From NCBI GenBank assembly GCA_024408495.1, contig JAKSUY010000002.1, positions 127-64,126 of the forward strand: DNA of 64,000 nucleotides. Direction: 5' to 3'. The notes beneath the pieces were generated by a model that saw only the letters and a program-made list of their open reading frames with translations, had not been told where the DNA came from and did no database searches. Shown here in pieces: positions 38,851 to 63,939 of this stretch. Numbering within the stretch: the stretch's first letter is position 1; every line of letters starts with the position of its first letter. A program made the position numbers and the translations under genes. The stretch comes from Bacilli bacterium. GTDB lineage: Bacteria > Bacillota_I > Bacilli_A > RFN20 > CAG-826.

Positions 38851-39144
38851 ATGTATACAAGTGAATTTCATAATGCAGAAGAAACTAAAAAGGTTCTAGA
38901 AAAAGGTGCACCTGGTACCTTGCATAAGTGGTATCAAAAAAAGGAGAAAGGTCCAGCGCATCATACTGGAGATAATACTATGAAAAAGCCTACATTAAGA
39001 CAAAAAATGAATCAGTTAGAAGTATCAATTAATGAATTGACTAAAATAGTTAATGATGGATTTAAGCAAGTTAACAATCGAATTGATCGCATTGAAAATC
39101 GACTTGACTATAACGGACTTAAAAAATTACCTAATAATAGATAA
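38851..39144 (+). CDS. Small coiled-coil protein, paralog family member 2
   Basis: HHTGDNTMKKPTLRQKMNQLEVSINELTKIVNDGFKQVNNRIDRIENRLDYNGLKKLPNNR aligns with the genes at 60910 and 62393. The start is placed at ATG 38851 by homology of the SD region. Confidence 0.7.
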   Translation: MYTSEFHNAEETKKVLEKGAPGTLHKWYQKKEKGPAHHTGDNTMKKPTLRQKMNQLEVSINELTKIVNDGFKQVNNRIDRIENRLDYNGLKKLPNNR

Positions 39145-39339
39145 TATTTGATATTGATTGTTCTTTATTACGACAAGCAAAATCTTTAATTTGATATCAT
39201 TTTTTGTTATTTGATTATATTAGTAGTTCTGATATTCAATAGATACGTTTGGAACAGAAAAGAGTTTCATATATTCTCTTTTACATAATCCACATGGGAC
39301 CTTGTGGGTTTTGTTTATAGAAAAGATATAATATACATA

Positions 39340-40052
39340 ATGAACGAATTCGATGTAATTAAAGAGAAGGCGAAAATTAACTATCAAAATTACAACACTG
39401 AAGATGATTCAAAGTAGTATAAAATAGTCGATACAGTTTTAAACAAGGTGATATATCGAGTTCTAGATAAATATGATTGTAGTGATGCGATTATTTTAAA
39501 TGCGGGGTCGGGTGGACAGAGCTATAACACTAAAGGTAAATTAATCCATTTAGATTTAGTAGATAATTACATAAACAATTCAAACATTTTCTAGTTGGTT
39601 CAGTTGAATCGATGCCGCTTGCTGATAATAGTATCGATATTCTTATTTGCGTTGGTAGCGTATTTAATTACACCAATTATGAAAAAAGCATTAAAGAATT
39701 TTATCGCGTTCTTAAGAAGAACGGGGTTCTTATTTTAGAATTCGAACGTAGTAATAGTGGCGACTTTCTCTTTAATAAAAATCATCATAAAAAAGCATTC
39801 TTACAAAAATACGAATATAGCGGTCAAGAACATTTATTGATGATGTATAACGAAAAGTTCATTATTAATTGTCTTAAAGATAATGGTTTCAGATTAAATT
39901 ATAAGAAACGCTTTCATACTTTATCGACCCTTTTATGCCGTTTAGGCATGAAAGAAGAAAGCGCTGCTAAATACGCAAAAGGAGATTGGATACTTAGACC
40001 AGCATCTTATCCTTTAGCGCATAATGTAATTATGGTACTTAAGAAGCTTTAA
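39340..40052 (+). pseudogene. Class I SAM-dependent methyltransferase (Methyltransf_11-like), disrupted
   Basis: Starts at ATG 39340. There is an in-frame TAG after ...EDDSK. SAM motif I is ILNAGSGGQ. A frameshift lies before ...HFLVGSVESMPLADNSIDILICVGSVFNY, which continues into ORF 39612..40052. Confidence 0.7.
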
Positions 40053-44184: not shown

Positions 44185-44200
44185 TTTTGATTATATCAAA
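44185..44200 (-). promoter_or_regulatory. Extended -10 promoter (minus strand TTTGATATAATCAAAA) for the XRE-TM operon
   Basis: The reverse complement contains TGATATAAT (TGnTATAAT). The same 15-nt palindromic string recurs at 54144..54158. Confidence 0.45.
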
Positions 44201-44275
44201 TATCAACATATTTATTAAATATGCGTAGAAAAACTAAGTAAACCAGTCTAAACTACTTATTCATAAAATCAATAA

Positions 44276-45316
44276 CTATTTAATATATTTATCTAGTAAT
44301 CTATCACTTATCTCAACATTCTTAGTTAAGCGTTTATGGGTTGGATGAATGACTTCTCTATTGTTAATCTCTTCGACCGACATGCCTTCTTCCATGTAAT
44401 TCTCTTCTAAAATAAATATAGCATCATATCTAGCCTTTATTTTATTTAATAAGCAATGAGCGGCTATTGCTTTAGCTTCATTTTTGCTCTTCCCTTTTCC
44501 CTTAGAGACAAATAACTTAGATGGCCATTGATAAATGTCGACGAAAGGTTCGGAATAAGTCGGATGCATTGTGCGTTTTAAATCAACCGTAGAGTCTTTG
44601 GGGAATTTAGCAAGACAAAGGTGAATAATAGGGTTATCCCCTCCTCTCTCCATCGTGAACTCATAAGTAATCGGAGGAATCTTCTTTCTGTCCGATAAGC
44701 GCTTTAAATGTGAGATATCATCAACATTATCAGAGAATAGTTCGTCTCTTTTTAAAACTACTTCAGTTGTGAAATCACTACCTAATTCACTTTCTGTAAA
44801 TTCGGGTAAATCTAAACTTCTATAAATTAAATCAATATGAGAAGAATAGATATCACTGATCTTCTTTAAATCAGTTGAATATCTTGAATGAAACGATTCA
44901 ATTGCAATTGCACCTATAATCCGTTCGTATAAGTCGCCTAAGCGATGATTGTTATTACGTAAACCGTTTCTTTCGTCTTCTTCGCTTAAAGGCATATCAG
45001 CGACTAAATCTAGTTTACGAATAATTATGGCAAATGTACTATTACTAGTTAGCTTAGATTTAATATCACTTAGTTGTTTAACGTTAAGTGTTTCAATTCC
45101 ACCATAATCCCACTCTAAGTTATAACGAGATAATTGAGTGTATTTTTTAATCATATACTCACTAGCAGCACCGTATAAGGCAATATCCCCAAAGAATTCA
45201 TACGAATCACTTAATTTAGTTCGATCGATTGCTTCGTTTAAAATATCCAAGTTTTCAAACTTATAATTAAACTTTTCTTGAATCTTATTAAGATATTGCC
45301 GTCTACGTTTATCCAT
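44276..45316 (-). CDS. Divergent RNase III-like protein (RNase III catalytic domain + dsRBD + C-terminal extension)
   Basis: The start at 45316 lies behind GAGGT plus 6 nt. Signature DSYEFFGDIAL corresponds to ERLEFLGDAVL, and LGDLYERIIGAIAI corresponds to ADxFEAxIGAIYL, so all acidic catalytic positions are kept. The dsRBD tail is SKGKGKSKNEAKAIAAHCLLNKI. Confidence 0.7.
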   Translation of the reverse strand: MDKRRRQYLNKIQEKFNYKFENLDILNEAIDRTKLSDSYEFFGDIALYGAASEYMIKKYTQLSRYNLEWDYGGIETLNVKQLSDIKSKLTSNSTFAIIIRKLDLVADMPLSEEDERNGLRNNNHRLGDLYERIIGAIAIESFHSRYSTDLKKISDIYSSHIDLIYRSLDLPEFTESELGSDFTTEVVLKRDELFSDNVDDISHLKRLSDRKKIPPITYEFTMERGGDNPIIHLCLAKFPKDSTVDLKRTMHPTYSEPFVDIYQWPSKLFVSKGKGKSKNEAKAIAAHCLLNKIKARYDAIFILEENYMEEGMSVEEINNREVIHPTHKRLTKNVEISDRLLDKYIK

Positions 45317-45329
45317 ATATACCTCTATT

Positions 45330-46031
45330 TTATAGTTTTTTAAGCTTCCTTGCAGTTTTAAATGTTTGTGAGATGAAGAAGTCTGCGCCTCCAAAGTTAA
45401 TGACTGCTTGACCTACTAAGAAGGTATCTCGGTCAATTAAACTCTTAAATTTCTTAAGTTTAAGGAGCAATTCTGGATTAATCTTTAAAACCGGATACTC
45501 TTCTTTATCATCCATCAAGGCAAAACTATTAATGATATGTTCATATTCTTGATTATTAATATAACCACAGTCGTGCATTACAATACTCATCATAATGTTA
45601 TTAAAGCGTTTGGTGAAATTAGTGCGAACACTGATATTTTGGATTTCACCTTGGTTCCCAGATAAACATTGATGATACATCACACATGTAGTAGGAGTAA
45701 TAAAACGTTTATCTCCATGCGTGAAGATAATGGCATCTGCACTAGCGACCATCCCTAATGCATAGGTATAAACCGGTGCATCAATATGATCCATCGTGTT
45801 AAGCACCATCTTACACGCTTCACCATCTCCGCCGGGACCAGAGATATATAAGTGAATTGGTTTTTTAGTATCAAGAGAATTAAGATAAAGTAATTGTTCA
45901 CAAACAAATGAACACTTAGTCTCATCAACTTCTCCAGTTAAGTAAATGATTCTTTCTTTGAATAGGACTGAATCAAGCTGTAAGGCCGCATTTTCCATTA
46001 ACACGGCGGGTGAATAAATTCTCTCGTACAT
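45330..46031 (-). CDS. Divergent ClpP-like serine protease
   Basis: ERIIYLTGEVDE, LYISGPGGD, catalytic Ser in GMVASAD (GMAASMG in ClpP), His in VMYHQ (MIHQP) and Asp in LIDRD (DTDRD). There is an insertion between the His and Asp regions. Confidence 0.75.
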   Translation of the reverse strand: MYERIYSPAVLMENAALQLDSVLFKERIIYLTGEVDETKCSFVCEQLLYLNSLDTKKPIHLYISGPGGDGEACKMVLNTMDHIDAPVYTYALGMVASADAIIFTHGDKRFITPTTCVMYHQCLSGNQGEIQNISVRTNFTKRFNNIMMSIVMHDCGYINNQEYEHIINSFALMDDKEEYPVLKINPELLLKLKKFKSLIDRDTFLVGQAVINFGGADFFISQTFKTARKLKKL

Positions 46032-46032
46032 A

Positions 46033-48348
46033 TTATCTATCCTCCTTTAAGCCATCAAAGCTTTTGGTGAGTTTAGAGAGTAAATACTTCTTTAAGACAT
46101 TAGGAATACATCTAGCGCCTACTTCTTTAACGTTTGATTTATCCACTAAGGCCTTTAATTCATCCTCACTCACTTTAAGTGAAGCATAGTTAGAATTACT
46201 AGCTTGGAGCTCTTTTAAGCGTAATTTAAGAATATCTAATACATTTTCCTTACTAAGCGCTTTAAAGACGATGAAATGATCAATTCTACCGATAAACTCA
46301 GGTTTGAAATAACTTTTAAGTGCTTCCTTGATATTAGCCGCAGCCGTTTCATCGTTAATCGCGGTAGACATTACTAGTGATCCAATATTCTTATTAGAAT
46401 CATTACATCCTAAGTTAGAAGTAAAGATAATCACTGAGCCTCTAAAGGATAAGGTATTACCTCTTCCGTCATCGGCAATTCCTTCATCAAGCGCGACAAG
46501 TAAAGTTTTCATTACATCTGGATCAGCCTTTTCAATTTCATCAAAGACAATTACTCCACATGGATGAGCGGTAATAAACTTAGCAAGAGGAGACGAATAG
46601 TTAAATAAAGTAGCACCGCTAAATGGAACAGCATAATCAGCCATATTGACTTTAAGCATTGAGTTTTCGTTTTTAAAACAGATTTTCGCTAACTGTTTAG
46701 CGCTTTCGGTCTTTCCTACCCCAGTAGGTCCTACAAAGAATAAGGATAATGGGCGAATAGAACTTTCAAAGTCATACTTGTATTCAGTTAAGTCAGTAGT
46801 TAACTGATCAATAGCGGTATCTTGACCAATAATCATTGATTTTAATTCTTTAGATAAATTCTTGAGAGTTTCGTTTGTGACATTGCAATTGAATTTATCC
46901 TTAATAAAGTTATTTAATGAATCAACGTTAAAGATATTGTATTTAGGTTGAGTGAAACTTTTAATATTAGCGAATAAATCGTTAATTAAGGATTTAATCG
47001 CCGCTGGATTAGCCTTACCAGGATAAAACTTCTTGGTATAGCCTGATAAACGTTCCACTAATAAGTCCTTATCTATGAATTTAATACCATTACCATCTTT
47101 AGTTTCGAATTCGGTTAATAAGGATTTCGCTAAATTCTTAGCCTCTTCATCCTTCATCTCAACAAGCGTAACTTCTTTAAATCTACGACAAAGCGCTTTT
47201 TCACCAAACATAAATTGGTTATAGCGACTAGTAGTCTCCATTCCAATTACTTGAACTTTACCTTCACTTAATGCGGGTAATATCTTAGAACCTAAGTTAT
47301 TCGTTTGGTCATATTGATATCCACCATTATTAGCGAATTCAGCAAATTCATCAATTACTAGAATACAATTAGGATTCTCTTCAAAGGTTTTAAAGAGCTT
47401 CATCATATTGATTCCGGTTTCTCCAATATGCTTTTGTTCAATATTACTAGCGTTTAATTTATAGAATACTTTATCTTTTAATTCTTTGCATTTGCCTTGT
47501 GAAACAAGGTTAATGACATAATTTACTACGCTAGTCTTACCTGAACCAGACGCTCCTAAGACCATACAGTTATTCTCTTTTTTAGGTCCGCTTAAAATAC
47601 CAATAATTCTTTTAACCGCGCTATCTTGAACAACGTAGGTTTTATTAAAATCATTAGGATTGGCTTTAATTAATTCAATCCATTGTTTTTTAGTTAACAT
47701 TACTAGTTTCTCTAATGGCGTTAAATCTAAAAAGAATTCTTTATCTTTTTCTTCTCTAGTGTCATAGCTTTCTTCTAGATCATTAAGCTTGTCGTTTAAA
47801 CTTGCTTTAGCTTCTTCTAATCTATCGTCAAAGTCTTTAGGCTCATTAATACTCTTATAAGTACGGAAGTGATGATCCCAAGCATCTTCAAAGTGTAAAA
47901 TGTGGGTATCACTAGTAATTACGAATTCAAATTGTGGTGTTCCTACACCATCAATCGTTGCGTCAAAAGAGTCATAAGCGTAATTATAAACATCCCTTTT
48001 AGTGTCTACAGATAAACTATCATCATTAAACATATAGCTATGATGCCCATAACGATCAATAACTAAGTCGAACCATTTATTTATGGTTTCTTCTAGATGA
48101 TTAATAAATTCATCTTTTAATTTAAGGAAGGTTTCATTTTCCTTAGAGAAATCTAGACTCATAAAAGTCTCTTTGAAATCAATAAGATTACGGTAATAGT
48201 ACTCGTTAACCTCTAAATTATCTAGGTCAAGCGAAGCGCAATGTAGGTATCCTTTAGTTTCATCAATCAAAGTAGAGAGTCTCTTTTCTTCTACTTTAAT
48301 GTTTTGGGTGTCATTATTAGACACACCATTTAAATTGTTATTTTTCAT
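46033..48348 (-). CDS. Two-ring Clp/Hsp100-type AAA+ ATPase with a novel ~240-aa N-terminal domain
   Basis: D1 has Walker A LGASGSGKTS, Walker B ILVIDEF and ALCRRFKEV. D2 has IIGQDTAI, FVGPTGVGKTE, VIVFDEIEKADPDV, IIFTSNLG and FKPEFIGRIDHFIVF. No Clp_N repeat or UVR/M-domain was recognised. Confidence 0.8.
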   Translation of the reverse strand: MKNNNLNGVSNNDTQNIKVEEKRLSTLIDETKGYLHCASLDLDNLEVNEYYYRNLIDFKETFMSLDFSKENETFLKLKDEFINHLEETINKWFDLVIDRYGHHSYMFNDDSLSVDTKRDVYNYAYDSFDATIDGVGTPQFEFVITSDTHILHFEDAWDHHFRTYKSINEPKDFDDRLEEAKASLNDKLNDLEESYDTREEKDKEFFLDLTPLEKLVMLTKKQWIELIKANPNDFNKTYVVQDSAVKRIIGILSGPKKENNCMVLGASGSGKTSVVNYVINLVSQGKCKELKDKVFYKLNASNIEQKHIGETGINMMKLFKTFEENPNCILVIDEFAEFANNGGYQYDQTNNLGSKILPALSEGKVQVIGMETTSRYNQFMFGEKALCRRFKEVTLVEMKDEEAKNLAKSLLTEFETKDGNGIKFIDKDLLVERLSGYTKKFYPGKANPAAIKSLINDLFANIKSFTQPKYNIFNVDSLNNFIKDKFNCNVTNETLKNLSKELKSMIIGQDTAIDQLTTDLTEYKYDFESSIRPLSLFFVGPTGVGKTESAKQLAKICFKNENSMLKVNMADYAVPFSGATLFNYSSPLAKFITAHPCGVIVFDEIEKADPDVMKTLLVALDEGIADDGRGNTLSFRGSVIIFTSNLGCNDSNKNIGSLVMSTAINDETAAANIKEALKSYFKPEFIGRIDHFIVFKALSKENVLDILKLRLKELQASNSNYASLKVSEDELKALVDKSNVKEVGARCIPNVLKKYLLSKLTKSFDGLKEDR

Positions 48349-48731
48349 TTTCTAAATCTCCTTGCTTGAAAAATCTTTAGAAATGAAATACCGCTAATAT
48401 CAAACAAAAGCATTGCTGATGTTTGTAACAATTTTGTTATGCTAATTAAGTTTAACTTGCTTCTCCCGTAGGATTAGTAGGTCTTGTTAATAATCTAACA
48501 ATATTGATTAGAAGTTTTTCACTTCTGGTATTATTTTCTCATAATAAAAAAGAATTGCAATACCTATTTTCAGTATGTACGGTTTTTGGGATTTAAGTTA
48601 TGCTCTTATATTATATTAAAGCCGACTTTATGATATCTAACAATAATTATTTTTTTAACTTAATTAGATAAATAAATGGTATTTATGTACGCAAACAATG
48701 GTTTGATAGTGATATAATTAACTTGCTTGAT

Positions 48732-50903
48732 ATGTCAATAAATTCTCGTTGTCTTTATAATAGTAGCATTGATGAATTTTTAAATGCCGACGAGAAATCT
48801 ATTTTCGGGACTCTTTGTTCGAATTATCACGGTGAAGCCCTTACAACAACCAGAGAAGCCTGGAACAACGAAATAACTATCTTAAAACAAGTTTTAGCCA
48901 GCTTCGCAGGTTTAAACGGACAAATTATTTTTGAATATGATATACCGCGTCTAGGCAAAAGAATTGATGTTGTTGTTTTATTAAAAGGAATTGTATATTG
49001 TCTCGAGTTTAAAGTCGGTGAACATCAAATACACGAAGCCGACATTGATCAAGTATTGGATTATGCGATTGATTTAAAGAATTTTCATAAATTCAGCAAG
49101 GATAGAATTATTGTTCCTATCCTCATTGCGACAAATTACAACAATTCTTCTACCAACATTCAAATGTCGATATATGATGACAGGGTCGTTAACCCTCTAT
49201 TAACTGGAAAAAATGGAATTACTAATTTAATTAGTAATGTAATGAACAAATTTCCCGAAGAAAGTGAAGTTGATTCTAACTGGATTATTAGCCCATACGC
49301 TCCTACTCCAACGATAATCGAAGCCGCCAAAACTTTATACGAAAATCATACTGTTGAAAATATTACACGTCACGAGGCTGATAAAGTTTTTACTGATCGA
49401 ACAATTAATTGCATTATGAATATAATTCAAAAAAGTAAACAAAACCAAGAAAAAAGTATTTGTTTTGTCACCGGAGTTCCAGGAGCTGGAAAGACTCTTG
49501 TAGGATTAGATGTTGCTGTTCGCCAAACTTATCAAAGTAAAAATGAAACAATTAACGATGAGGGTGCGGTTTATTTATCAGGCAACGGTCCGCTTGTCGC
49601 TGTTTTAATTGAAGCTTTAGCTCAAGATAATTACAAAAAATGTAGAGAAAGGGGTGAAAAAAAGAAAATAACCGATTCACGTCGTGAAGTGAGTAAAACT
49701 ATTCAAATGATTCACCGTTATCGCGATAATATGTTGGCAAAAATTAAAAACCCAATTGAAAACAATATCGTAGAAATTGACCCAAAAAAAGCTGTAGATC
49801 AAGAACAATCTGGATATGGTGAAGTTGAACATGTTGCAATTTTTGATGAAGCACAGCGTTCATGGACACACAAAAGACTTGCTGATTATTTAAAGAAAGG
49901 TGGTACATACGGTAATAAATTAAAAGTAAGTGATTTTCCGATGTCTGAACCTTCCTTTTTAATCTGGTCTCTTAATCAGCGCAAAGATTGGGCATGCATT
50001 GTTTGTCTTGTCGGCGGTGGCCAAGAAATTAATACAGGCGAAGCTGGAATTTTAGAGTGGATAAGAGCATTAAATGAAAAATTCACTGATTGGAAAATCT
50101 ATATATCTCCTGAATTGAATGAAGAAGAATACGCTGAGGGAAGAATAAAAGAGATTTTAAAAAATAATATGAATGTTTTTTATGAAAAGGATTTACATCT
50201 TAGCGTGTCATTGCGATCATTTAGAGCTGAAAAATTATCAGCGTTTGTTCATGCATTATTATCTTTTGATGATAACGCCTCAAAAATTTATGACGAGATT
50301 AGGGATAAATATCCTATAGTTTTAACAAGAAATATGGATAAAGCAAGGGCGTGGCTTCATGATCGTGTTAGAGGCAATGAACGAACTGGCGTATTAATCA
50401 CAAAAGAATCTGCAAGGTACAAACCGCTGGCTGTTCACGTTCTGCCTTCTGGCGATGATAATGCAGTCCATTGGTTTTTGGATGATAAAGAAGATAGTAG
50501 GTCTTCAAATTATCTTGAGGACGCGGCCACTGAAATTCAGGTTCAAGGACTAGAACTTGATTATACGTGCTTATTATGGGACGCAGATATGAGATACGAA
50601 AATGGTTCATGGGGATTTTATAACTTTATATACCCAAGAGAAAATCTTAATAGTTCAAACAAAAAATACCCAGAATGGAAAAAATTAGTTCCAAATACCG
50701 AAAATAAACAAGATAAGATGAAATATATGTTGAACGCTTATAGAGTATTACTTACTCGAGCGAGATCCGGCATGGTTATCTGCGTGCCTAATGGTAATTC
50801 TAATAAAACTAAAAACGGTTATTGGGAAGACAACACAAGATTACCAGAATTTTATGATGCGACCTATAGATATTTAAAAAAGATAGGAATTAAAGAAATA
50901 TAA
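48732..50903 (+). CDS. DUF2075-type protein: N-terminal PD-(D/E)xK-like nuclease fold + SF1-like P-loop NTPase
   Basis: Nuclease-like IDVVVLLKGIVYCLEFK, Walker A VTGVPGAGKT, Walker B VAIFDEAQR and C-terminal LLTRARSGMVICV. The start is moved to ATG 48732. Confidence 0.7.
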   Translation: MSINSRCLYNSSIDEFLNADEKSIFGTLCSNYHGEALTTTREAWNNEITILKQVLASFAGLNGQIIFEYDIPRLGKRIDVVVLLKGIVYCLEFKVGEHQIHEADIDQVLDYAIDLKNFHKFSKDRIIVPILIATNYNNSSTNIQMSIYDDRVVNPLLTGKNGITNLISNVMNKFPEESEVDSNWIISPYAPTPTIIEAAKTLYENHTVENITRHEADKVFTDRTINCIMNIIQKSKQNQEKSICFVTGVPGAGKTLVGLDVAVRQTYQSKNETINDEGAVYLSGNGPLVAVLIEALAQDNYKKCRERGEKKKITDSRREVSKTIQMIHRYRDNMLAKIKNPIENNIVEIDPKKAVDQEQSGYGEVEHVAIFDEAQRSWTHKRLADYLKKGGTYGNKLKVSDFPMSEPSFLIWSLNQRKDWACIVCLVGGGQEINTGEAGILEWIRALNEKFTDWKIYISPELNEEEYAEGRIKEILKNNMNVFYEKDLHLSVSLRSFRAEKLSAFVHALLSFDDNASKIYDEIRDKYPIVLTRNMDKARAWLHDRVRGNERTGVLITKESARYKPLAVHVLPSGDDNAVHWFLDDKEDSRSSNYLEDAATEIQVQGLELDYTCLLWDADMRYENGSWGFYNFIYPRENLNSSNKKYPEWKKLVPNTENKQDKMKYMLNAYRVLLTRARSGMVICVPNGNSNKTKNGYWEDNTRLPEFYDATYRYLKKIGIKEI

Positions 50904-50925
50904 CTTATATTTATAGCACAAGATA

Positions 50926-52140
50926 TCATGAATAACTAAAAAGAGAATAAAATTTTTTCAACCAATCGAAAGATTTAGGACAGTTATATTCGCGTACGGC
51001 TTTTTTTAAATCTATGTAGAAACATTTAATAGTTTCATACTTTTTTTGACTAGATTTCCAGCTTGATGTCGCATCGCCATAATAGGAAAATAATTGGTCC
51101 TTCGGCAAAGAAGCCGGGAAAATAAAACAATTGTAAATCTCGTCACGATCGTATAAAAAAGGAGGCGCAGAAAGTCTATCGTGATTGAAATCAATGTTTT
51201 CAGCATAGGTTATCTGCTTTTGTATGCTAGAGATTTCTGGTAAACTCCCTTTGGCATAGCATTTAGAATCAATTACATACACCTTATTGTTGGCGATGTG
51301 AATAGTATCAGGAATTAATTTGTTTTTTAAAGGAGATGCTTTCCCACCAATTAAATAACTCGCGGAAGGCTCATAAATGGTTTTATTAACAACGTTACCA
51401 AGAATACTATCCACTATACTTTCAAAAACCACATCAAAACTTGAAACACCAAACGAGCTGATAACACCATCTTTACCTATTGTTTCGCAAACAATATTTT
51501 TCATGTGAGTCAGTAATAATCGATTGTCATCATTAAAAGTGCTATCGAGTTCTTTTTTTATGCAATTCAAATATTTACTTTTGAGATAGGGGGTAATAAT
51601 TTTCTTTTCCCAAGGGACAGATTTAGGATTCATGCCTTCTAACCAAATTCCTACTTTAGAAACCGCCTCATAGACACAATAATAATAGGCATCGATAATT
51701 AAAGAATTTGAAATGCATTTATTTTCGTAAATAGCATTTTTAAAATACACATCATTTCCAATAATGAAAGTCTCACCATGTAAAGTTCTTTTCCAATTGA
51801 TTCGCCCTGAAGTGTTAACTGAATAGCGCTTTTCATAAGTTAATGGACGACCATAAGTTTTGTAATGGCCAAGAATCCAAACCATTGATGATAGTGGAAA
51901 ATCATTAATGAATTCTCCTTCAACGCCTTCTATCTTTCTTAGTTCAGAACGACGTGTCCTAGCTTTATGTAGAGCCTTTAAAAAGTATTTAATATCAGCA
52001 AAAAAGTTTGGATCATCGTTCGACATAACATAATCATTCGGGACGCTTAATAAAATCTGTCCATTTTTTTCAAAATCGATGCCGACAAAATTTTTAGCCG
52101 GCTTGTGAATTATTTTTATCCTTCCTACAGGGTCAATCAT
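50926..52140 (-). CDS. McrC / LlaJI-R2-like restriction endonuclease subunit
   Basis: 404 aa, overlapping the upstream McrB-like gene by 4 nt. The PD-(D/E)xK-like core is IPDTIHI...VYVIDSKCY. Confidence 0.65.
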   Translation of the reverse strand: MIDPVGRIKIIHKPAKNFVGIDFEKNGQILLSVPNDYVMSNDDPNFFADIKYFLKALHKARTRRSELRKIEGVEGEFINDFPLSSMVWILGHYKTYGRPLTYEKRYSVNTSGRINWKRTLHGETFIIGNDVYFKNAIYENKCISNSLIIDAYYYCVYEAVSKVGIWLEGMNPKSVPWEKKIITPYLKSKYLNCIKKELDSTFNDDNRLLLTHMKNIVCETIGKDGVISSFGVSSFDVVFESIVDSILGNVVNKTIYEPSASYLIGGKASPLKNKLIPDTIHIANNKVYVIDSKCYAKGSLPEISSIQKQITYAENIDFNHDRLSAPPFLYDRDEIYNCFIFPASLPKDQLFSYYGDATSSWKSSQKKYETIKCFYIDLKKAVREYNCPKSFDWLKKFYSLFSYS

Positions 52141-54119
52141 TTGTTATTGCCTTTATGAAATAAACCATTGCGAAAAATTAAACCATCTCCATCTGTATAT
52201 TTCTTTAAGATTTTATCAAACGATTCATCTTCAAATTGGAATAATTGCGTTCTATCAATATTTTTCCCGACATCATTCCAAAGATACTCCAATACTTTAT
52301 TAGCAAAGAGGAATGGATCACCGTTGATTTCTCTTTTTTTGGCGAACCAATATCCAATTTGTCTATCCTCTTCCAATCCGTTAGCGATAATTACACGATT
52401 AACCGCATCTACGAAATCCGCCCAACTAACATTATTCGTCTTGGGGACAATGAAATCGTGTTCAGGCTTTCTAATAACATCCTCTGATTCTTCATTAGTT
52501 ACACGAATCATTTGCCATCTTCTTTTAAATGCAGCATCTAACTTAAACACATTTTGATCAGATGTATTCATAGTAGCGAAAATGAATAAATTATTTGGAA
52601 GTTTAATTTTTTCACTTATATCAATATTTTCTTGTTTAAAGTATTCGGCAATCACGTTATTAAATATACTATACTCGCTAAATCCGTTTTCATCTCTATC
52701 TAGGATTTGAAAAATATCTCCAAAAATAGCCGCAGAATTACCGCGATTTATTTCTTCGATAACCAAAGCGACTTTTCGCAGATTACCAGATTTTGAAGAT
52801 TCAATTGCTAAACGAAGTGCTTTTGTAAAAGGACCTGCTATAACTCGATAGTCTATGCCATCTTTGTTTTTTATAGGCATCAGTTGACCCACAAAATCAG
52901 AATTACTGTAATCAGGATGGAAGGTTGTTCTAATTATGAATTCTTCATCTTCCTTGGATTTTTTAAAATTTCTAGATAATAGGTGAGAATTAAGTTTGTA
53001 AGATTTTCCGCATCCTGGAATTCCATAATAAATGATGTTTGTACCAACTATTTTTTCTTCGCCAAAATCACTGTTGTTCTCATCATCTTCGTTTTCTAAA
53101 GGTTCCGTAATGCTCAAATCATCAATTTCTACTTTATTGACACTTTTATACGGCAAATCGAGCCCAAGTCTCCAAGAAAACCTACCAATAATTGCAGATA
53201 GCTCGAAATTTTTCATTGTGCTATTTCTAGTGAATTTATTGACTTCCTTGCAACACTCAAAATAATCTAATTTATAATCTTTAACTTGTAAAAATTTAAA
53301 TGTTATATCGATAAAATCATCTCCGATACAATCATAGAAAACGTTTGGATATATAAGAAATAAATATTTTTTAAACCATTTACGAATTTTGCTAAAACCA
53401 ACTTCTTTACAGTTCTTGTTTATCAATTTGACAATATCATCAAAAGAAGAAACTTCGTCTAACTTAGCAAATTGTCTAGGGGTAAAGTTAATTTGTTTAG
53501 ATTCAATAAAATTGAAAATGTCAATGAATGCTGTTCTTATTTCTTTAGCTTTTTTGATCGCGTCATCTTCAGAGATCTCCTTTTTTTCAAACCACCAAGC
53601 AGTTTTATTTTCCTTTTCCTTTCTGCAATAAGCAAAACCCTTGTTGACGCAACTTCCATCTCTGGCCTTTGGGCCGAAATTCGATGCTTCCATTTCCATA
53701 ATCAAACTTTTAAAGGTTTCGTTTACGCGACGACCGGCGTTAAAAAATTTATTTAAGAATTCTTCATCAGACATTTTATCAATTGCATTTTTTCCAAATA
53801 AATCGTTAAAAGAAGTGATGTACATTTTTCTGCCATCTAGTTCGTGCGAAAAACGTATTTCATCAATAATACTGTTTAAATCACAATTTGATTTGTTAGT
53901 GTTTAACTTATTAAGATTATTAAGATAATTTTTAAATAATTTAATTATGCTGTTGCAATTCTCTTCTTGTTGTTTATACACTTTTAATTTAGTAATTTCG
54001 CTCGGTATATTTTTTGCGTTTGTTGCAACGAATATATTAGGGTTCTCTTTTACAATTAATTCGTATAAATTACTATAACCATCTTTTTCGCATAAACGCA
54101 AATAAGTGTAAAAATACAT
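52137..54119 (-). CDS. McrB-like AAA+ GTPase restriction subunit with an unrecognised ~350-aa N-terminal domain
   Basis: Walker A YGIPGCGKS, Walker B/McrB signature LVIEEINRGN, FIFATMNTSDQ and AAFKRRW. Confidence 0.75.
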   Translation of the reverse strand: MYFYTYLRLCEKDGYSNLYELIVKENPNIFVATNAKNIPSEITKLKVYKQQEENCNSIIKLFKNYLNNLNKLNTNKSNCDLNSIIDEIRFSHELDGRKMYITSFNDLFGKNAIDKMSDEEFLNKFFNAGRRVNETFKSLIMEMEASNFGPKARDGSCVNKGFAYCRKEKENKTAWWFEKKEISEDDAIKKAKEIRTAFIDIFNFIESKQINFTPRQFAKLDEVSSFDDIVKLINKNCKEVGFSKIRKWFKKYLFLIYPNVFYDCIGDDFIDITFKFLQVKDYKLDYFECCKEVNKFTRNSTMKNFELSAIIGRFSWRLGLDLPYKSVNKVEIDDLSITEPLENEDDENNSDFGEEKIVGTNIIYYGIPGCGKSYKLNSHLLSRNFKKSKEDEEFIIRTTFHPDYSNSDFVGQLMPIKNKDGIDYRVIAGPFTKALRLAIESSKSGNLRKVALVIEEINRGNSAAIFGDIFQILDRDENGFSEYSIFNNVIAEYFKQENIDISEKIKLPNNLFIFATMNTSDQNVFKLDAAFKRRWQMIRVTNEESEDVIRKPEHDFIVPKTNNVSWADFVDAVNRVIIANGLEEDRQIGYWFAKKREINGDPFLFANKVLEYLWNDVGKNIDRTQLFQFEDESFDKILKKYTDGDGLIFRNGLFHKGNNK

Positions 54120-54143: not shown

Positions 54144-54158
54144 TTTGATTATATCAAA
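54144..54158 (-). promoter_or_regulatory. Extended -10 promoter (minus strand TTTGATATAATCAAA) for the McrBC-like operon
   Basis: TGATATAAT lies about 25 nt upstream of the AGGAG SD and the ATG at 54119. Confidence 0.45.
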
Positions 54159-54245
54159 TTATTGGGTACAAGTTTTGTTTTTTTCGATAGCATATAAACA
54201 AATCACAAATTAACTTTTAAAGTATTTTTATGAGTTTAAAGTATA

Positions 54246-57200
54246 CTACTGAATGTTATAAATATAAGTTTCGCTATCGATATTCATAGTTGTTTTAAGT
54301 GCTTCTTGATAAGCTTGTAATTGGTCAGTATGATCAGTAGTGACATCTTTATCCGTCTTATAGTCAATGATAATAGCCTTATCATCTTTAATAATTAATA
54401 AGTCAATTACACCATTACTGATTTTACGGTCGTTGTAGATTGCAAATGGTACTTCAGCGTGGCATTCATTACTCTTAATTAATTCATAGATGTTATCATC
54501 GATACCACTTATTTGTTTAAATCCGGTTGAATAGATTGTGTTATAAACTTTTTTAAGTTGTTCTAATAAATGCATAGCATCGTATTCTTTAGCAATCGTC
54601 TCACAAATGGAGATATCTAACTTATTAGTTTTACTTATAACAATATCTTCCATTAGTTTATGGACAATTGTGCCAAAGAGAAGACTATCTTTATTGCTCT
54701 TTTCTAGTGTAATTGGTAATTTAGATTCTTCTACTACTTCCTCATCGTGTTTCATAGCGCTTATAGTGGAAGCGTTGATAATTTCGTAAGTCGAAGCAAT
54801 TAAATCATTATGGCTAGTAACAGCGATATTAGATTGATTAATGACTTCTAACGCACTTATATAACTAGGAGTATTAATAACATTAATCGCATTAACTTCA
54901 AACGCTTTTACTAAAGTATTGTTATTAATTAATGGTGACCACTTGGATGCACCTTTATTCGGTTTATTAACAATCAAGAGTTCTTTTGCTCTAGTTGCAG
55001 CAACGTAAAGTAAACGTTCATGCTCGGCTTTAGAATATTGCGCTTCTTTATCTTTATTGCCTTCTTTATCATCATTCGTAGATAATAGGGATTCTTTTCT
55101 TCCAGTAAATTCATCACTTTCACCTAAGATATCAAAATAATATATTTGGTTACGATCTAAATCGCAATATTGAGGAACTCGAGTATCAGTATTAATTCCA
55201 GCTTTAGTCAAAATCACAACATTTGATTCTAATCCTTTTACTTTGTGTAAATTAGCGATATGAACGGAATCAATTTGATTATCTAATAACGAAACTCGTT
55301 CGATTTCGCTTTCTTCTTGTAATCCTCTTAAATATAGAACTGCATCATATAAAGAATTAATCTTCCCGTTCATTTCTTCGTTTCTTAATAAAGAGATAAT
55401 CGCTACTAAGATATCAAAGCCTTCATAACCTAAACGCTCTAGAATAACTTGTTGATTGATTATTTCCTCTAAGATATATGATCCTGGTTGATCTAAGTCA
55501 ACACTAATTAAGTTAGCTAATAAATCACTTTCCAGATCAATACTTTTATCTAATGAGAAATTAAATAAAGGCGATGATAATAAAGAAAGTCGGTTAAATA
55601 AATTATTCTTATCAATTAAATAATTAAATAAATTAACTACGCTTACTAGCATTGAAGAATAAGAGAAATCAATGCTACCTTCACAGAAACAAGGAATCTT
55701 AGCTTTATTAAGTGCGGCTAAATATTTTTTAATTGCATCTTTAGAGGAAGTAATTAGCATAAATTCTTGATATTTAAATCCATTTTCTTTCTTTAATTTC
55801 TTAATCATATCAGCAACGCATTCGGGTTCTGCGGGCTGAGTAGCTAAATTATTAGTGTAACTATATACGCCACTTATTCCATTACTAGCCTTTTTACTTG
55901 TAGATGGAATATCTGGATGCTCTAAACTATTAAAGCTCTTAAAGGTATTGTTAAAATAATTAACTAGATCATCGTTGCTTCTAAAATTCGAGGATAAATC
56001 ACAAATCTTACCAAGCGGGTTAGATGAATCTTTAAATATTTCTTCAATAATGTCATAGGCTCTAACATCTGCGCCTCTAAAGTGATAAATAGATTGCTTG
56101 CGGTCACCAACGATAAATAAACGTCCACCTTCAATTGGTAATTTCTTCCAATCTTGATTTCGGTTAGAGGAATTTAATCTAAATAATAGTTCATATTGAA
56201 GTAAATCTGTATCCTGACATTCATCTAATAAATAGTATTTATATTTCTTTTGCAAATTATTAATTACATCAATCTTACTTTGATCATCGTTTCTTAATAA
56301 ATTAACCGCATAGATTAACGATTCTTTAAAAGTGATTTTCCCGTTTTCTCTTAAATAATCTACGATGGCATCCTTAGCCTTTAATAAGAACGGCATAATT
56401 TCTTGATAAATAATTTTGTTAATTAATACCATTAAACGATCATCAAGCGTATAACGTATGACTTTCTTTACTTCCTTAACATTACATAAACTATATAATG
56501 GATTTAATGTTTTTATATCAGCGGGTACAATTAAACCTTTAAGTTTTGATATATAGTAACGTTTACTTCTATATGAATATTTACTACTAGAGATATGACG
56601 ATAAATATAGGATGCTTGCTGTAATTGCTCATAAGCCTTCGTGCTATCTTTAACGGCATTCATTTCATTTGATACACCGTTTTTCTTAACATAATCAAGT
56701 AAAGCGTTTAATCCGGTTTCTAAAACGATTAAACTACTATTAAAAGATTTAATATCGCTCATAAGGCTAGAACCATCATATTGAACATTAAAGTTTCGAT
56801 TATTAAGAATCGTTTTCATCACGATTGGGAAGTTCTTACCACCTACATAAGAGTTGAACTTAAGCGCTTCGCTTTTAAGAGAGTATAAGTTATCGTGACT
56901 CATCTTATGATATAGGTCCACTAAGATGTTTGTAAATTCTTCTTCATCAATAACTTCACTACTAGTTGGAATATTCGCATCAATTGGATGCTCGGTTAAA
57001 ATCGTTTGAACAAATGAATCGATCGTGCCTAAGAAACACGTATCAATATATTGAAGTGCGATTAAATCACGCTTCTTCATATCTTCGTTTGGATCATCTA
57101 ATAAGGAATAAGGGTCATCTCGGCTCTTTAAGAAATTCGGTTCGCTTCTTTTTTCTAATTTGCGGTATAAGCGTTCATAAAATTCATTCGCAGCTTTCTT

Positions 57201-57377
57201 AGTAAAGGTAAGAGCGATAATTTCGTTAATATGAACATCATCACTAGACTCAATAAGCGCGACTACGCGTTCAACTAAAATTGAAGTCTTGCCACTGCCC
57301 GCCGAGGCGCGCACTAAAATATTCTCTTTTAATGAATTTTTACTAACGATGTATGCTCTAGTGCTGGTGTCGTCCAT
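54246..57377 (-). CDS. addA: ATP-dependent helicase/nuclease subunit A (AddA/RexA)
   Basis: UvrD-type motifs ASAGSGKTS, LDECQDT, VGDRKQSIYHFRGA and YVAATRAKE. The C-terminal RecB-type nuclease is GVIDLLIIKDDKAIIIDYKTD. Confidence 0.85.
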   Translation of the reverse strand: MDDTSTRAYIVSKNSLKENILVRASAGSGKTSILVERVVALIESSDDVHINEIIALTFTKKAANEFYERLYRKLEKRSEPNFLKSRDDPYSLLDDPNEDMKKRDLIALQYIDTCFLGTIDSFVQTILTEHPIDANIPTSSEVIDEEEFTNILVDLYHKMSHDNLYSLKSEALKFNSYVGGKNFPIVMKTILNNRNFNVQYDGSSLMSDIKSFNSSLIVLETGLNALLDYVKKNGVSNEMNAVKDSTKAYEQLQQASYIYRHISSSKYSYRSKRYYISKLKGLIVPADIKTLNPLYSLCNVKEVKKVIRYTLDDRLMVLINKIIYQEIMPFLLKAKDAIVDYLRENGKITFKESLIYAVNLLRNDDQSKIDVINNLQKKYKYYLLDECQDTDLLQYELLFRLNSSNRNQDWKKLPIEGGRLFIVGDRKQSIYHFRGADVRAYDIIEEIFKDSSNPLGKICDLSSNFRSNDDLVNYFNNTFKSFNSLEHPDIPSTSKKASNGISGVYSYTNNLATQPAEPECVADMIKKLKKENGFKYQEFMLITSSKDAIKKYLAALNKAKIPCFCEGSIDFSYSSMLVSVVNLFNYLIDKNNLFNRLSLLSSPLFNFSLDKSIDLESDLLANLISVDLDQPGSYILEEIINQQVILERLGYEGFDILVAIISLLRNEEMNGKINSLYDAVLYLRGLQEESEIERVSLLDNQIDSVHIANLHKVKGLESNVVILTKAGINTDTRVPQYCDLDRNQIYYFDILGESDEFTGRKESLLSTNDDKEGNKDKEAQYSKAEHERLLYVAATRAKELLIVNKPNKGASKWSPLINNNTLVKAFEVNAINVINTPSYISALEVINQSNIAVTSHNDLIASTYEIINASTISAMKHDEEVVEESKLPITLEKSNKDSLLFGTIVHKLMEDIVISKTNKLDISICETIAKEYDAMHLLEQLKKVYNTIYSTGFKQISGIDDNIYELIKSNECHAEVPFAIYNDRKISNGVIDLLIIKDDKAIIIDYKTDKDVTTDHTDQLQAYQEALKTTMNIDSETYIYNIQ

Positions 57378-57383
57378 AATTAT

Positions 57384-59930
57384 TTACTTTCCTTTATGGC
57401 AAATATGCTCATAATTACAATATTTGCAAACATCTTCTTCTAATACTTTTTCGTTAAACACAGGGATTGGGAACGATTTATTCTTAATGGTATCCGTAAA
57501 TTCAGAGATTAAATCCTTTAGTTTATTTTGAGTATCAACGCTAAATGGATCTTCATAAGTAAAGATTTTATTAAAGCGGGTATAGATGAAGGATACTCTC
57601 TTTACTTTGATTCCTTTTTCTTTTTCTAATAGATAAGCGTAGATAATACCTTGAATATCTTGAATAAAATCGTTGTTTGCATGATCAATGCTTTTTGCAC
57701 TCTTATAATCAAAGATTATATAATCACCGGTATTAGGATCCTTCACTAATAAGTCAATTGAAGAATGAAACTTAATTCCCAAAATATCTTGATCTTTAAT
57801 TTCAATTTCCGCTCCTACAAATTCATAATCCTTAATTGCATTATAGGCGTGCACACAAGAAAGAATAAAATCATCATATTGATCGTTTGGATTCACTAAA
57901 GGAACGTTGAATTTAATATAAGCCTCAAATAATTCATCCGCTAAAGCAATAAAACTTTCTTCTGTAGGATATTTATTTTTATTATTAGCGTAGGTTTCCA
58001 TTACTAGATGAACTAAATCGCCAAACACTCCACCTTGGAAAATACTAATCGCATCATATTCTCTAGGCTTATCCGCATATAGGACGTTAGTTAAATAAAA
58101 TCTTAATTTACATTTTAAATAAGTAGATAAAGCGCTAGGAGAATATCCTTTAGTAAGTAAATCGTTTGGATGAAGTGGCTGAGCAATATTAGGCCTAACA
58201 ATGCTAATTTCTTTATTGTCTTTAAATAATTCACTCATTTTTCTTAAACTAGATATTTGATTATCAAACTGTTTAGCGGATTCTCTAGAATCTTTAATCG
58301 AGAAACCGATTTTATGTGCATATTCAAAGACTACACTACTTGGATTAACATCTTTTACTTCTTCTATGTTCTTGCAAGAATAAGTAAGATGAACATTCAC
58401 GCCCAACGATTTATAAATATTAATTAAACTAATTAAGTATTCTCTTTTTTGAATAATACGTTCATCACTTTTACTATTAGAGCCCGTTAATAAATGATAG
58501 GCCTCATTATTCATTAAATAATCTTCGATGGGTTTGCCAGGGAAGTTCGCAGCACTTAATCCAACAATATAAATATGAGGTCTAACGGTAGATAAGGCTC
58601 GAGAAATAGTAGTAACGTGAAGCGCACCGCTTTTAAAAGCCTTACCTAATAGATATTTATCCTTCATTTCTTCTAGATAAGTATTAATAAAGCTTTTATT
58701 CACTAAGCCGTTAGCCTGATTAATCGTATCTAAGATATAAGTAGAAGCTAATTCATTAAAGTCCTTATAAGAATCGGATGGGATATTCGTATAATTTTTA
58801 ATGATATAAGGTAAACCATTTGAGAATTCTTCTAAGGCATGGAGCGCTTCTTGTTCAGCTTCTTTTTTAATCCACGAACGATGATCAACCTTATCGATAA
58901 AGGACTCTCTATAAATTGGATTAATTGATTGGTAATTCGCTAAGAAAGCATCATTACTATTCTTATCATAACTAACTTTCCATCTACCTAATAGATTAGC
59001 GACCGTTTCTAAACTTTGTGGTTTAACTAGTAAATCGCTTTTAAAACAAGAAGCCTTTAATAATCTAAGATAGCCATTTACATCATAGAAATATTGATTC
59101 TTTAATAAATCTAATAATTGATATAACGAATACGGCGTACTTAGATGAATCGGTAGGCCACATTCAAACGTCATCGGAATATTATAAATTCGACTATCTT
59201 CATTTAATAAATGCACGTATTTATCTTTTTTTGCTAAAACGATTAGACAACTATCTAAAGGATATTTATGTTCTGCAATATCAGATAAGATTCCATCGAT
59301 TTCGCTTTTCTCACCATAATAGGCCTTGATAGTATCAACCTTTGCATCTTTAATTAAAGTTTTGTGATATAAATCTACTAGAGATACTTTCTTGATGGTT
59401 CCTAATGTATTTAACAACAAGATTTCTAATGGTGTTAAGGTTTCTTCTTCCAATATACATATTTCTTCGTATATTTTTTTGTTTTGTTTAATAATCGATT
59501 TTGCTAATAAAACATCATCACATAAAGATCTTTTATTAAGTTCTTCTAAATATTTCTGATAAATTTGCGTCAAGATATTAATGTTTTGATTAGCTTTCAA
59601 TTTAGAAGCGACCTTATCTTGGAACTCTTTAAATTCATCATCGCTAGTGATATTCATTCTTAGGTCATGAATTGTATTAAAAGCATGACGAACGTCCGTA
59701 AACGAAGAGAAAGAATAAATATCACGAATAAAGCTTTCGAGTAAAAATAAAGCGTCTTTTTGATTAACCATAGACGCACGATTAAACGCTCCTAATCTTA
59801 AATGCGCGTTCTCTAATAAATCATTAAAACGATACACTCGATAATTAAAACTATTGACTCCATTTAAAGAAAGAGAGCGTAATAATTCCGTTTGATTTAA
59901 TAAATTAGAGTAGACAATCGTTTCTTTCAT
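57384..59930 (-). CDS. addB: Helicase/nuclease subunit B (AddB/RexB)
   Basis: The C-terminal nuclease is SIDLLVKDPNTGDYIIFDYKSAK. The Fe-S cluster cysteines are CKLRF ... CKYCNYEHIC. It sits immediately upstream of addA. No Walker A was seen. Confidence 0.8.
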   Translation of the reverse strand: MKETIVYSNLLNQTELLRSLSLNGVNSFNYRVYRFNDLLENAHLRLGAFNRASMVNQKDALFLLESFIRDIYSFSSFTDVRHAFNTIHDLRMNITSDDEFKEFQDKVASKLKANQNINILTQIYQKYLEELNKRSLCDDVLLAKSIIKQNKKIYEEICILEEETLTPLEILLLNTLGTIKKVSLVDLYHKTLIKDAKVDTIKAYYGEKSEIDGILSDIAEHKYPLDSCLIVLAKKDKYVHLLNEDSRIYNIPMTFECGLPIHLSTPYSLYQLLDLLKNQYFYDVNGYLRLLKASCFKSDLLVKPQSLETVANLLGRWKVSYDKNSNDAFLANYQSINPIYRESFIDKVDHRSWIKKEAEQEALHALEEFSNGLPYIIKNYTNIPSDSYKDFNELASTYILDTINQANGLVNKSFINTYLEEMKDKYLLGKAFKSGALHVTTISRALSTVRPHIYIVGLSAANFPGKPIEDYLMNNEAYHLLTGSNSKSDERIIQKREYLISLINIYKSLGVNVHLTYSCKNIEEVKDVNPSSVVFEYAHKIGFSIKDSRESAKQFDNQISSLRKMSELFKDNKEISIVRPNIAQPLHPNDLLTKGYSPSALSTYLKCKLRFYLTNVLYADKPREYDAISIFQGGVFGDLVHLVMETYANNKNKYPTEESFIALADELFEAYIKFNVPLVNPNDQYDDFILSCVHAYNAIKDYEFVGAEIEIKDQDILGIKFHSSIDLLVKDPNTGDYIIFDYKSAKSIDHANNDFIQDIQGIIYAYLLEKEKGIKVKRVSFIYTRFNKIFTYEDPFSVDTQNKLKDLISEFTDTIKNKSFPIPVFNEKVLEEDVCKYCNYEHICHKGK

Positions 59931-62698: not shown

Positions 62699-62701
62699 TA
62701 T

Positions 62702-63820: not shown

Positions 63821-63939
63821 AAAAATATTTTATAACATTTCGTCGATATTAAATAAAAAAAGCACAATCGAGATGAAGCGAACACTAAATTGTGTTACAT
63901 TTCAAACGAGAGTGCTTTTGTTTTACTCAATTATAATTA

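Follow-up and report, generated by a model that had tools for sequence, protein, structure and literature searches.

Organization of the locus

The window analyzed here is a stretch of 64,000 nucleotides (nt) that covers nearly the whole of the 64.8-kb contig JAKSUY010000002.1 of the NCBI metagenome-assembled genome (MAG) 'Bacilli bacterium'. It carries three minus-strand open reading frames (ORFs), hereafter the triad, which encode a Clp-type double-ring AAA+ ATPase, a ClpP-like protease and an RNase III-like nuclease. The sequence supports well the view that the triad is an accessory operon, restricted to its lineage, that lies in a variable defence island and translationally couples a private Clp-type protease to a divergent RNase III. 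The features of the triad, in window coordinates and with protein lengths in amino acids (aa), are as follows:

46033..48348 (minus strand): double-ring AAA+ ATPase, 771 aa, ClpA/ClpE-like topology, no M-domain
47629-48348 (minus strand): ATPase N-domain, residues 1-240, acidic (net charge -23), novel
46879-47628 (minus strand): first AAA+ ring (D1), residues 241-490
46036-46878 (minus strand): second AAA+ ring (D2), residues 491-771
47419..47433 (minus strand): D1 pore loop KHIGE (in KHIGETG), where Hsp100s have K-Y-R-G-E/D, the Tyr being replaced by His (alignments)
46597..46608 (minus strand): D2 pore-loop remnant LFNY, with G-A-P-P-G-Y-V-G deleted and the loop 9-10 residues shorter (alignments)
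46369..46389 (minus strand): putative ClpP-docking loop N-I-G-S-L-V-M (alignments)
45330..46031 (minus strand): divergent ClpP-family serine protease, 233 aa (CLP_protease, PF00574, 1e-31, above cut-off)
45741-45743 (minus strand): catalytic S97 of the ClpP-like protein, in a conserved alignment column
45465-45563 (minus strand): 33-aa insertion of the ClpP-like protein, residues 157-189, unique to the lineage
44276..45316 (minus strand): predicted class-1 RNase III-like double-stranded RNA (dsRNA) endonuclease, 346 aa from its ATG (TIGR02191, alignment, AlphaFold 2 (AF2) and Foldseek)
Residues 1-150 of the latter: nuclease domain, with E40, D44, D128 and E131
Residues 151-199: linker of ~50 aa
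Residues ~200-300: dsRNA-binding domain (dsRBD) with a β2-β3 insertion
Residues 301-346, nt 44279-44416 (minus strand): helical tail of 46 aa, modelled with low confidence

The stop codon of the ATPase gene (TAA) is followed after 1 nt by the ATG of the ClpP-like gene, with AAGGAGG upstream, and the TAA of the ClpP-like gene is followed after 13 nt (aatagaggtatat, containing GAGGT) by the nuclease ATG at 45316; a Shine-Dalgarno sequence thus precedes both downstream starts. Spacers of 1 and 13 nt imply a single transcript and translational coupling, and as far as sequence can tell the three genes are coupled in one operon. This layout is the one given in the initial annotation, which had been made from the letters and a list of ORFs. 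A longer, TTG-started form of the nuclease ORF (from 45394) is not conserved in the relative L001 described below, and the NCBI and Logan gene calls both use the 346-aa ATG form. The NCBI product names are 'AAA family ATPase' (MCQ2795786.1), 'ATP-dependent Clp protease proteolytic subunit' and 'ribonuclease III domain-containing protein'. Since genes for SecA and ThrRS lie on the same contig, it is chromosomal.

The double-ring ATPase

Pfam places AAA in D1 (residues 262-393) and AAA_2 (535-691) and ClpB_D2-small (698-762) in D2, while the top NCBIfam model is TIGR02639 (ClpA, 2e-70), matched as a single stretch over residues 238-762. Because ClpA aligns with the protein in one stretch, the ATPase has no M-domain. 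The recognized motifs are GASGSGKTS, ILVIDEF and ALCRRF in D1 and GPTGVGKTE, VFDEIEKA, TSNLG, FIGRID and GARCIP in D2. Walker A and B, sensor-1, the arginine fingers and sensor-2 (GAR) are intact in both rings and occupy invariant alignment columns, so that by its nucleotide-binding motifs the protein belongs with the two-module Hsp100/Clp AAA+ ATPases. The two Hsp100 rings read from the motifs by the initial annotation are therefore confirmed by Pfam, NCBIfam and the motif alignment.

The closest solved relatives of the ATPase are ClpE, ClpC1, ClpC and ClpA, i.e., Hsp100s that bind ClpP, and they rank ahead of ClpB. At the docking position the ATPase carries I-G-S, compared with VGF in ClpE, VGL in ClpC1 and IGF, LGF or VGF in ClpA/ClpC-like homologues; IGSL is conserved in L001. 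The loop itself is retained, and ClpB homologues have a gap at that position. The kept loop, together with solved relatives that are ClpP partners, would fit a pairing of the ATPase with the ClpP-like protein.

The first 240 residues, in which the initial annotation had recognized no known feature, gave no Pfam match at E<=0.05, no match among PDB sequences at E<=10 and no homologue covering them among 5.8 billion proteins. Neither a Clp_N nor a zinc-binding N-domain was detected in Pfam or PDB sequence searches. This N-domain is a candidate for substrate, adaptor or trigger recognition. Rather than thread substrates processively, the ATPase may serve to gate or activate ClpP or to remodel a partner.

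The nearest cellular homologues of the ATPase were considered as possible further triads and were set aside: a Saccharibacteria gene of unclear context, a ClpV of a type VI secretion system and a housekeeping gene, none of which forms a triad. The first of these, an 808-aa double AAA+ Clp-like ATPase of Candidatus Saccharibacteria (P0105; contig L006, 6001-8427), has no ClpP or RNase III neighbour and, like the triad ATPase, lacks both canonical pore-loop motifs and Clp_N.

The ClpP-like protease

The CLP_protease match and a complete Ser-His-Asp triad place the second protein in the ClpP family. Aligned with 10 relatives, the protein has H120 and D202 in invariant columns and S97 in a nearly invariant one, and the DRD segment is also recovered in the PDB alignment. 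Its axial loop at the N-terminus has lost 4 residues, and the C-terminus is basic. Outside its own lineage, the protein reaches at most ~43% identity, and this over part of its length; it is about equally distant from housekeeping-type and accessory ClpPs. The retained catalytic residues, the divergence and the insertion described in the initial annotation are all found again in the Pfam match and the alignment.

An assignment to a known accessory ClpP clade was tried and dropped, as the Aliarcobacter protein P0154 (31-34% identity), whose gene is surrounded by defence-type genes, is not nearer than P0167 (33%), a ClpP of conventional length from a Culicoidibacterales MAG. In Aliarcobacter cryaerophilus (contig L003, NERN01000001.1, 8001-8594), a 197-aa 'ClpP family protease' lies amid STAND/NACHT, WYL, Card1-endonuclease, DUF2130 and cREC_REC genes, a neighbourhood which suggests that stand-alone accessory ClpPs occur near defence-type genes in other phyla.

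The RNase III-like nuclease

The third protein matches TIGR02191 (RNaseIII) at 1e-11 over residues 13-141, and its score with Pfam Ribonuclease_3 (PF00636), 25.6 bits, falls just under the cut-off of 27. Across 20 RNase III relatives, E40, D44 and E131 are invariant and D128 is nearly so; they correspond to E41, D45, D114 and E117 of Escherichia coli RNase III, and both the family signature and the catalytic acids are present. Judged by such motifs, the catalytic residues of the ClpP-like protein and the nuclease are intact. AlphaFold modelling from the single sequence was unusable, with a predicted local distance difference test (pLDDT) score of 34, and was repeated with the 20-sequence alignment, giving an overall pLDDT of 72, with values near 90 for the nuclease domain and of 80-88 for the dsRBD.

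The top PDB matches of this model in Foldseek are the RNase III enzymes of E. coli, Thermotoga maritima and Aquifex aeolicus, over both domains, at E values of about 1e-7 (8e-8). Alignments spanning nuclease domain and dsRBD were obtained with 7r97, 1o0w and 2ez6, and of the dsRBD alone with Staufen, TRBP and Loqs; the nuclease domain alone superposes on Campylobacter jejuni RNase III at 3.3 Å. The modelled dsRBD consists of a helix at 200-209, strands at 217-275 and a helix at 278-310, as in the α-β-β-β-α fold of a dsRBD. Beyond these domains, the protein has an insert after the signature helix (helix 3), the linker, the dsRBD insertion and the tail. The initial annotation had reported the acidic positions, the dsRBD, the inserts and a C-terminal tail of ~55 aa; the alignment, TIGR02191 and the AF2/Foldseek results agree with it and support an RNase III fold, while the tail measures about 46 aa.

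An indexed search of the 5.8 billion proteins returned two nuclease clusters only, one being the protein and the other an 81% relative. When 1.84 billion representatives were scanned exhaustively with HMMER, 19 proteins were found at E<=1e-3 (best 2e-7), all with their best-scoring stretch in the N-terminal half and none reaching the dsRBD or tail. The best of these remote matches (P0206-P0217) are bacterial RNase III proteins of 320-400 aa, apparently with two dsRBDs and some with Lys-rich tails.

Distribution and conservation of the triad

The triad was found on the MAG contig and on two Logan contigs, L002 (99.97% identical) and L001 (86% DNA identity). The gene order of L001 is ATPase, ClpP, nuclease, HTH_3 membrane protein, 87-aa protein and saccharopine-dehydrogenase-like protein. 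Against L001, the ratio of nonsynonymous to synonymous substitution rates (dN/dS) is 0.07 for the ATPase C-terminus, 0.06 for ClpP and 0.17 for the nuclease, with 0.05-0.07 in flanking genes; dS in this comparison is 0.4-0.7. Purifying selection on all three genes indicates that all three are functional. The nuclease evolves ~2.5 times faster than its partners, its tail being fastest (57% identical).

To find relatives, the GTDB species genomes were scanned with a two-sequence alignment of the saccharopine-dehydrogenase-like protein. The scan gave one relative, 'Bacilli bacterium isolate Horse_feces346' (MAG346, JAKSUZ01, contig L013) from horse faeces; the AddA-like protein as a synteny anchor gave no match in genome contigs, and an exact look-up of the 87-aa neighbour protein gave no record. 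In MAG346, the helix-turn-helix (HTH), 87-aa and saccharopine-dehydrogenase-like genes are 85.5% identical to the window at the nucleotide level, and the triad is absent; its slot holds a WYL/WCX regulator, a DUF2779/Cas4-like nuclease and a Phd/ParE pair. The ENA contig L014 runs from ABC-transporter genes through a small ORF and a cation-efflux gene to WYL and DUF2779, without any of window 39.3-62.6 kb. In L013 and L014, tblastn found no trace of the triad, of the PDC-S41 helicase and the LlaJI/McrB-like (McrBC-like) pair that neighbour it (48723..54119), or of the UvrD/PD-(D/E)XK pair beyond them. The MAG346 proteins are present in the searched collection, yet none matches the nuclease or the ATPase N-domain.

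Its absence from MAG346 and L014 makes the triad accessory, and by sequence its slot is a variable one, occupied by defence-type genes in each of the relatives examined, as befits the accessory module suspected by the initial annotation. Conserved presence and high similarity among relatives, as expected of housekeeping rnc or clpP, were not observed. Joint retention under purifying selection and joint absence in two relatives argue against a chance juxtaposition. The initial annotation had also looked to co-occurrence of the three genes in other genomes; none was found outside the triad's own lineage. The triad is confined to one narrow, uncultured horse-gut lineage, which limits both its generality and computational testing.

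In sequence, all three proteins are near-orphans. Against Bacillus subtilis SecA, the SecA of this contig reaches 873 bits, compared with 83 bits for the ClpP-like protein against the best solved ClpP and 23 bits for the nuclease against the best solved RNase III. These scores argue against a simple fast evolution of the whole genome, and they substantiate the earlier remark that the proteins are far from the housekeeping consensus.

Genomic context

The features adjoining the triad are:

44205..44275: boundary of the variable segment (blastn and three-way alignment); MAG346 homology begins at ~44204, exactly at the HTH promoter and the palindrome described below
48349..48722 (minus strand): divergent intergenic region of 374 nt between the triad and the DUF2075/SLFN-g3 helicase gene
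48639-48610 (minus strand): promoter-like site for the triad, a consensus match only
48723-50903 (plus strand): DUF2075/SLFN-g3 helicase, divergent from the triad (PADLOC PDC-S41, 4e-242)
50926-52140 (minus strand): LlaJI-type nuclease (Pfam/PADLOC)
52137-54119 (minus strand): McrB-like AAA_5 ATPase (Pfam/PADLOC)

The triad thus lies in a variable island enriched in defence genes. The divergent DUF2075 gene and the McrBC-like pair named in the initial annotation were identified as a PDC-S41 helicase and as a LlaJI-type nuclease with an AAA_5 ATPase, respectively, and the PADLOC models matched by these upstream neighbours are PDC-S41/AbiO and REase_II only. No tRNA that could mark an integration site was found.

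The putative 5' leader of the triad (window 48349-48610, minus strand, ~260 nt) is more stable than shuffled sequences (z=-3.2) and could be a regulatory or RNase III-sensitive structure, provided that the predicted promoter is real. Rfam gave nothing at the gathering threshold in the whole window and nothing at E<=1 in the triad locus, leader included, and the 5' intergenic region contains no convincing small ORF.

Beyond the McrB-like gene, window 54246-59930 encodes a UvrD/RecB-like helicase (1043 aa) and a PD-(D/E)XK/Cas4-like nuclease (848 aa) that resemble AddAB. As this pair lies inside the segment missing from the homologous loci of both relatives, it may be island cargo instead of the housekeeping AddAB. 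An exact 16-nt palindrome, TTTGATTATATCAAAT, occurs at window 44186-44201, within the HTH_3 membrane-protein promoter, and at 54144-54159, immediately before the McrB-like gene; there is none upstream of the triad. L001 and L013 have kept the copy that precedes the HTH gene. The palindrome may be an operator for the HTH protein and may link that protein to the McrBC-like pair.

Elsewhere in the window, a class I S-adenosylmethionine methyltransferase gene (39316-40037) is a pseudogene with an in-frame stop and a frameshift; in MAG346 it is intact, with 265 aa (L013:14187-14984). The surroundings of the cation-efflux gene (window 39119-39316 and 62605-63861; L013; L014) differ in order in all three relatives: short element, methyltransferase-to-HTH block, triad and other defence genes, efflux in the window; efflux, methyltransferase-to-HTH block, short element, WYL in MAG346; ABC, efflux, short element, WYL in L014. 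These orders are not explained by a single insertion and could reflect rearrangement or misassembly of a MAG contig. Two adjacent plus-strand ORFs at window 25179-29265 (700 and 666 aa) have no Pfam match at E<=1e-5.

Comparison with known systems

Among known machines, ClpAP, ClpCP and ClpEP are the most similar to the ATPase-ClpP pair: there are two AAA+ modules with intact Walker A/B, sensor and arginine-finger motifs, the topology is that of ClpA and has no M-domain, the docking position carries a loop and, encoded beside the ATPase, there is a partner ClpP with a Ser-His-Asp triad. In contrast to those machines, the triad ATPase carries its 240-aa acidic orphan domain in place of a Clp_N, zinc or UVR N-domain, and differs further by the D1 Tyr-to-His change, the deleted D2 GYVG, the IGS tip and the lack of an AAA_lid_9 match. 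The triad ClpP has its 33-aa insertion and shortened axial loop, and their operon is an accessory one that lies in an island and includes a coupled nuclease gene.

The nuclease resembles class-1 RNase III (rnc) in its nuclease domain with a single dsRBD, its ExxxD/DxxE residues and a predicted fold shared with the E. coli, T. maritima and A. aeolicus enzymes. It is larger than rnc products (346 versus about 225 aa), the additions being the insert after helix 3, the 50-aa linker, the dsRBD insertion and the 46-aa tail, and it scores below the Pfam gathering threshold. Its gene is not found where rnc usually lies, and relatives do without it.

Dodola (DolA/DolB) and the PADLOC candidate PDC-M37 share with the triad a ClpB-D2-like AAA+ ATPase; their ATPase models span 375-518 positions, whereas the triad ATPase is a double-ring protein of 771 aa. 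PADLOC detected no DolA or PDC-M37A partner beside it. With the protease-gated toxin systems CmdTAC, Lon-dependent type II toxin-antitoxin modules, IetAS, CalpL/CalpT and BrxL, the likeness would be one of proposed logic only, in that a protease controls a toxic effector; it is a functional analogy and involves no homology. CmdTAC and type II toxin-antitoxin modules borrow the host ClpP or Lon, while IetAS, CalpL/CalpT and BrxL carry proteases of other families. To our knowledge, a private ClpP and Hsp100 are combined with an RNase III effector in none of these named systems. For CmdTAC, toxin release gated by the host ClpP is an established mechanism of defence (PMC11618068).

ClpA-like and ClpP-like proteins of phages, including jumbo phages, are homologous to the triad proteins at the family level. 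In PHROG, the ATPase matches phrog_4871 ('ATP-dependent protease', 5e-90), the ClpP-like protein phrog_1827 and the nuclease phrog_28637 (5e-6); the phage ClpA-like matches to the ATPase are 27-35% identical. Two phage ClpA-like loci, in the 735-kb megaphage LR756501 (L011) and the faecal contig MT835891 (L012), were examined as possible triads and rejected, since both encode a canonical Clp_N and canonical motifs and neither has ClpP or RNase III next to it.

No ClpA/ClpP/RNase III module was found described in the literature, and the main text of the DefensePredictor paper mentions neither Clp nor RNase III. The earlier statement that no named defence system has this composition thus holds, both for the literature and for PADLOC, which has no model for the two partners of the ATPase.

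Proposed function and alternative explanations

We hypothesize that a dimer of the RNase III-like protein would act as the effector, cutting phage dsRNA from convergent transcription or structured host RNA, and that the ATPase-ClpP pair would set the activity of the nuclease through proteolysis. In one scenario, the nuclease or a partner would be held low by proteolysis until infection disturbs this control; in the other, the fast-evolving C-terminal tail or an inhibitor would be removed after the N-domain has recognized a trigger. The outcome would be protection against phages or mobile elements, possibly by abortive infection. Physical docking of the ATPase on ClpP, substrate threading, the nuclease as target or effector and the defence phenotype are all steps that we infer. 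An RNase III-like effector set by cognate ATPase-ClpP proteolysis, with the N-domain as recognition element and an anti-phage or anti-element outcome, is held tentatively, at somewhat under an even chance. A new anti-phage system in which a private ClpAP-like machine, its N-domain sensing a phage product, gates an RNase III-family nuclease is a real possibility but a doubtful one. The defence interpretation draws on the PDC-S41 and McrBC/LlaJI-like neighbours and on the variable slot with its defence-type genes.

Several results weigh against this proposal. No PADLOC family matches the ClpP-like or the RNase III-like protein, and the matches of the ATPase to DolB (6e-29) and PDC-M37B (1e-26) arise through the generic D2 only (residues ~450-657). 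The island contains no integrase or other mobility gene, and the base composition of the triad equals that of the rest of the contig, with no sign of recent transfer. The pore-1 tyrosines (KYRGEFE in D1, GYVG in D2) are missing from the ATPase, and its docking tripeptide is IGS instead of the expected IGF or IGL ([ILV]-G-[FL]); with these non-canonical loops and tip, processive unfolding into ClpP is not assured, and the 'regulated unfolding' of the initial annotation is less secure than its list of motifs implied. The shortened axial loop and the 33-aa insertion of ClpP count against the proposal as well. Moreover, the triad occurs only in ~2 species-level variants of one lineage, so that its association with defence is that of a single island, and the comparison with housekeeping genes covers this one contig of the MAG.

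That last point bears on the explanation that the organism's housekeeping ClpP, Hsp100 and rnc genes are those of the triad and no others, in highly diverged form. Canonical ClpP is often absent from reduced-genome lineages filed under 'Bacilli', which would fit such a case; yet in the annotated proteome of the relative at ~86% DNA identity neither the nuclease nor the ATPase N-domain has a homologue, the SecA encoded on this contig shows normal conservation, and the nuclease score is >100-fold weaker than expected of an RNase III orthologue. We consider this explanation very improbable. It is rather unlikely, in our view, that the triad is a lineage-specific regulatory or physiological module unrelated to immunity, i.e., a paralogous Clp protease with its own RNase III paralogue serving a specific task in RNA processing or ribonucleoprotein turnover, such as stress-induced ribosome or mRNA decay, in a plastic region. 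Purifying selection and intact active sites in all three genes are consistent with that role, as are the shared base composition, the absence of mobility genes and the synteny with the HTH, 87-aa and saccharopine-dehydrogenase-like genes in two relatives. However, the triad is dispensable in MAG346 and L014, where defence-type genes fill its slot, its immediate neighbours are defence genes, and its extreme divergence and fast-evolving nuclease better fit conflict genes.

The spacers of 1 and 13 nt, the retention of the triad as a unit in L001 and L002 and its loss as a unit in MAG346 and L014 all speak against three independent, merely adjacent genes, in which the ATPase would be a ClpP-free chaperone or remodeller like ClpB or ClpV and the nuclease would have an unrelated role. 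The docking loop, present where ClpB-type proteins have none, and a ClpP-like protein otherwise without an obvious partner point the same way. Non-canonical pore loops and docking tripeptide, and the existence of related double-ring ATPases without ClpP neighbours, would suit independent genes, an arrangement that we judge highly unlikely all the same. Finally, the triad could be cargo of a degraded mobile element (prophage, integrative and conjugative element or satellite) that once served the element's takeover of its host or superinfection exclusion. All three proteins have PHROG matches, the segment is variably present and differs in order among relatives, and jumbo phages are reported to encode ClpP and ClpA (PMC7824862). 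Against such an origin, which seems unlikely, tblastn against 50,697 phage records and a scan of IMG/VR gave no match to the nuclease, the phage ClpA-like proteins are distant and the two scanned loci differ from the triad as described above, and 38-64 kb contains no genes for integrase, structural proteins or replication.

Implications

The main limit of the finding is its rarity, the triad being known from one uncultured horse-gut lineage. Even without a role in defence, it provides a natural Hsp100 in which both pore-loop tyrosine motifs are altered, with an IGS tip, an orphan N-domain and an insertion-bearing ClpP, and it is thus a useful test case for the minimal requirements of Clp coupling. 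If the triad is a true immune module, it would add two features absent from catalogued defence systems, a system-encoded ClpP/Hsp100 protease and an RNase III-family effector, and the latter would link bacterial immunity to dsRNA cleavage, the chemistry of eukaryotic Dicer and Drosha. It would then represent a bacterial antiviral response built on dsRNA cleavage under dedicated regulated proteolysis.

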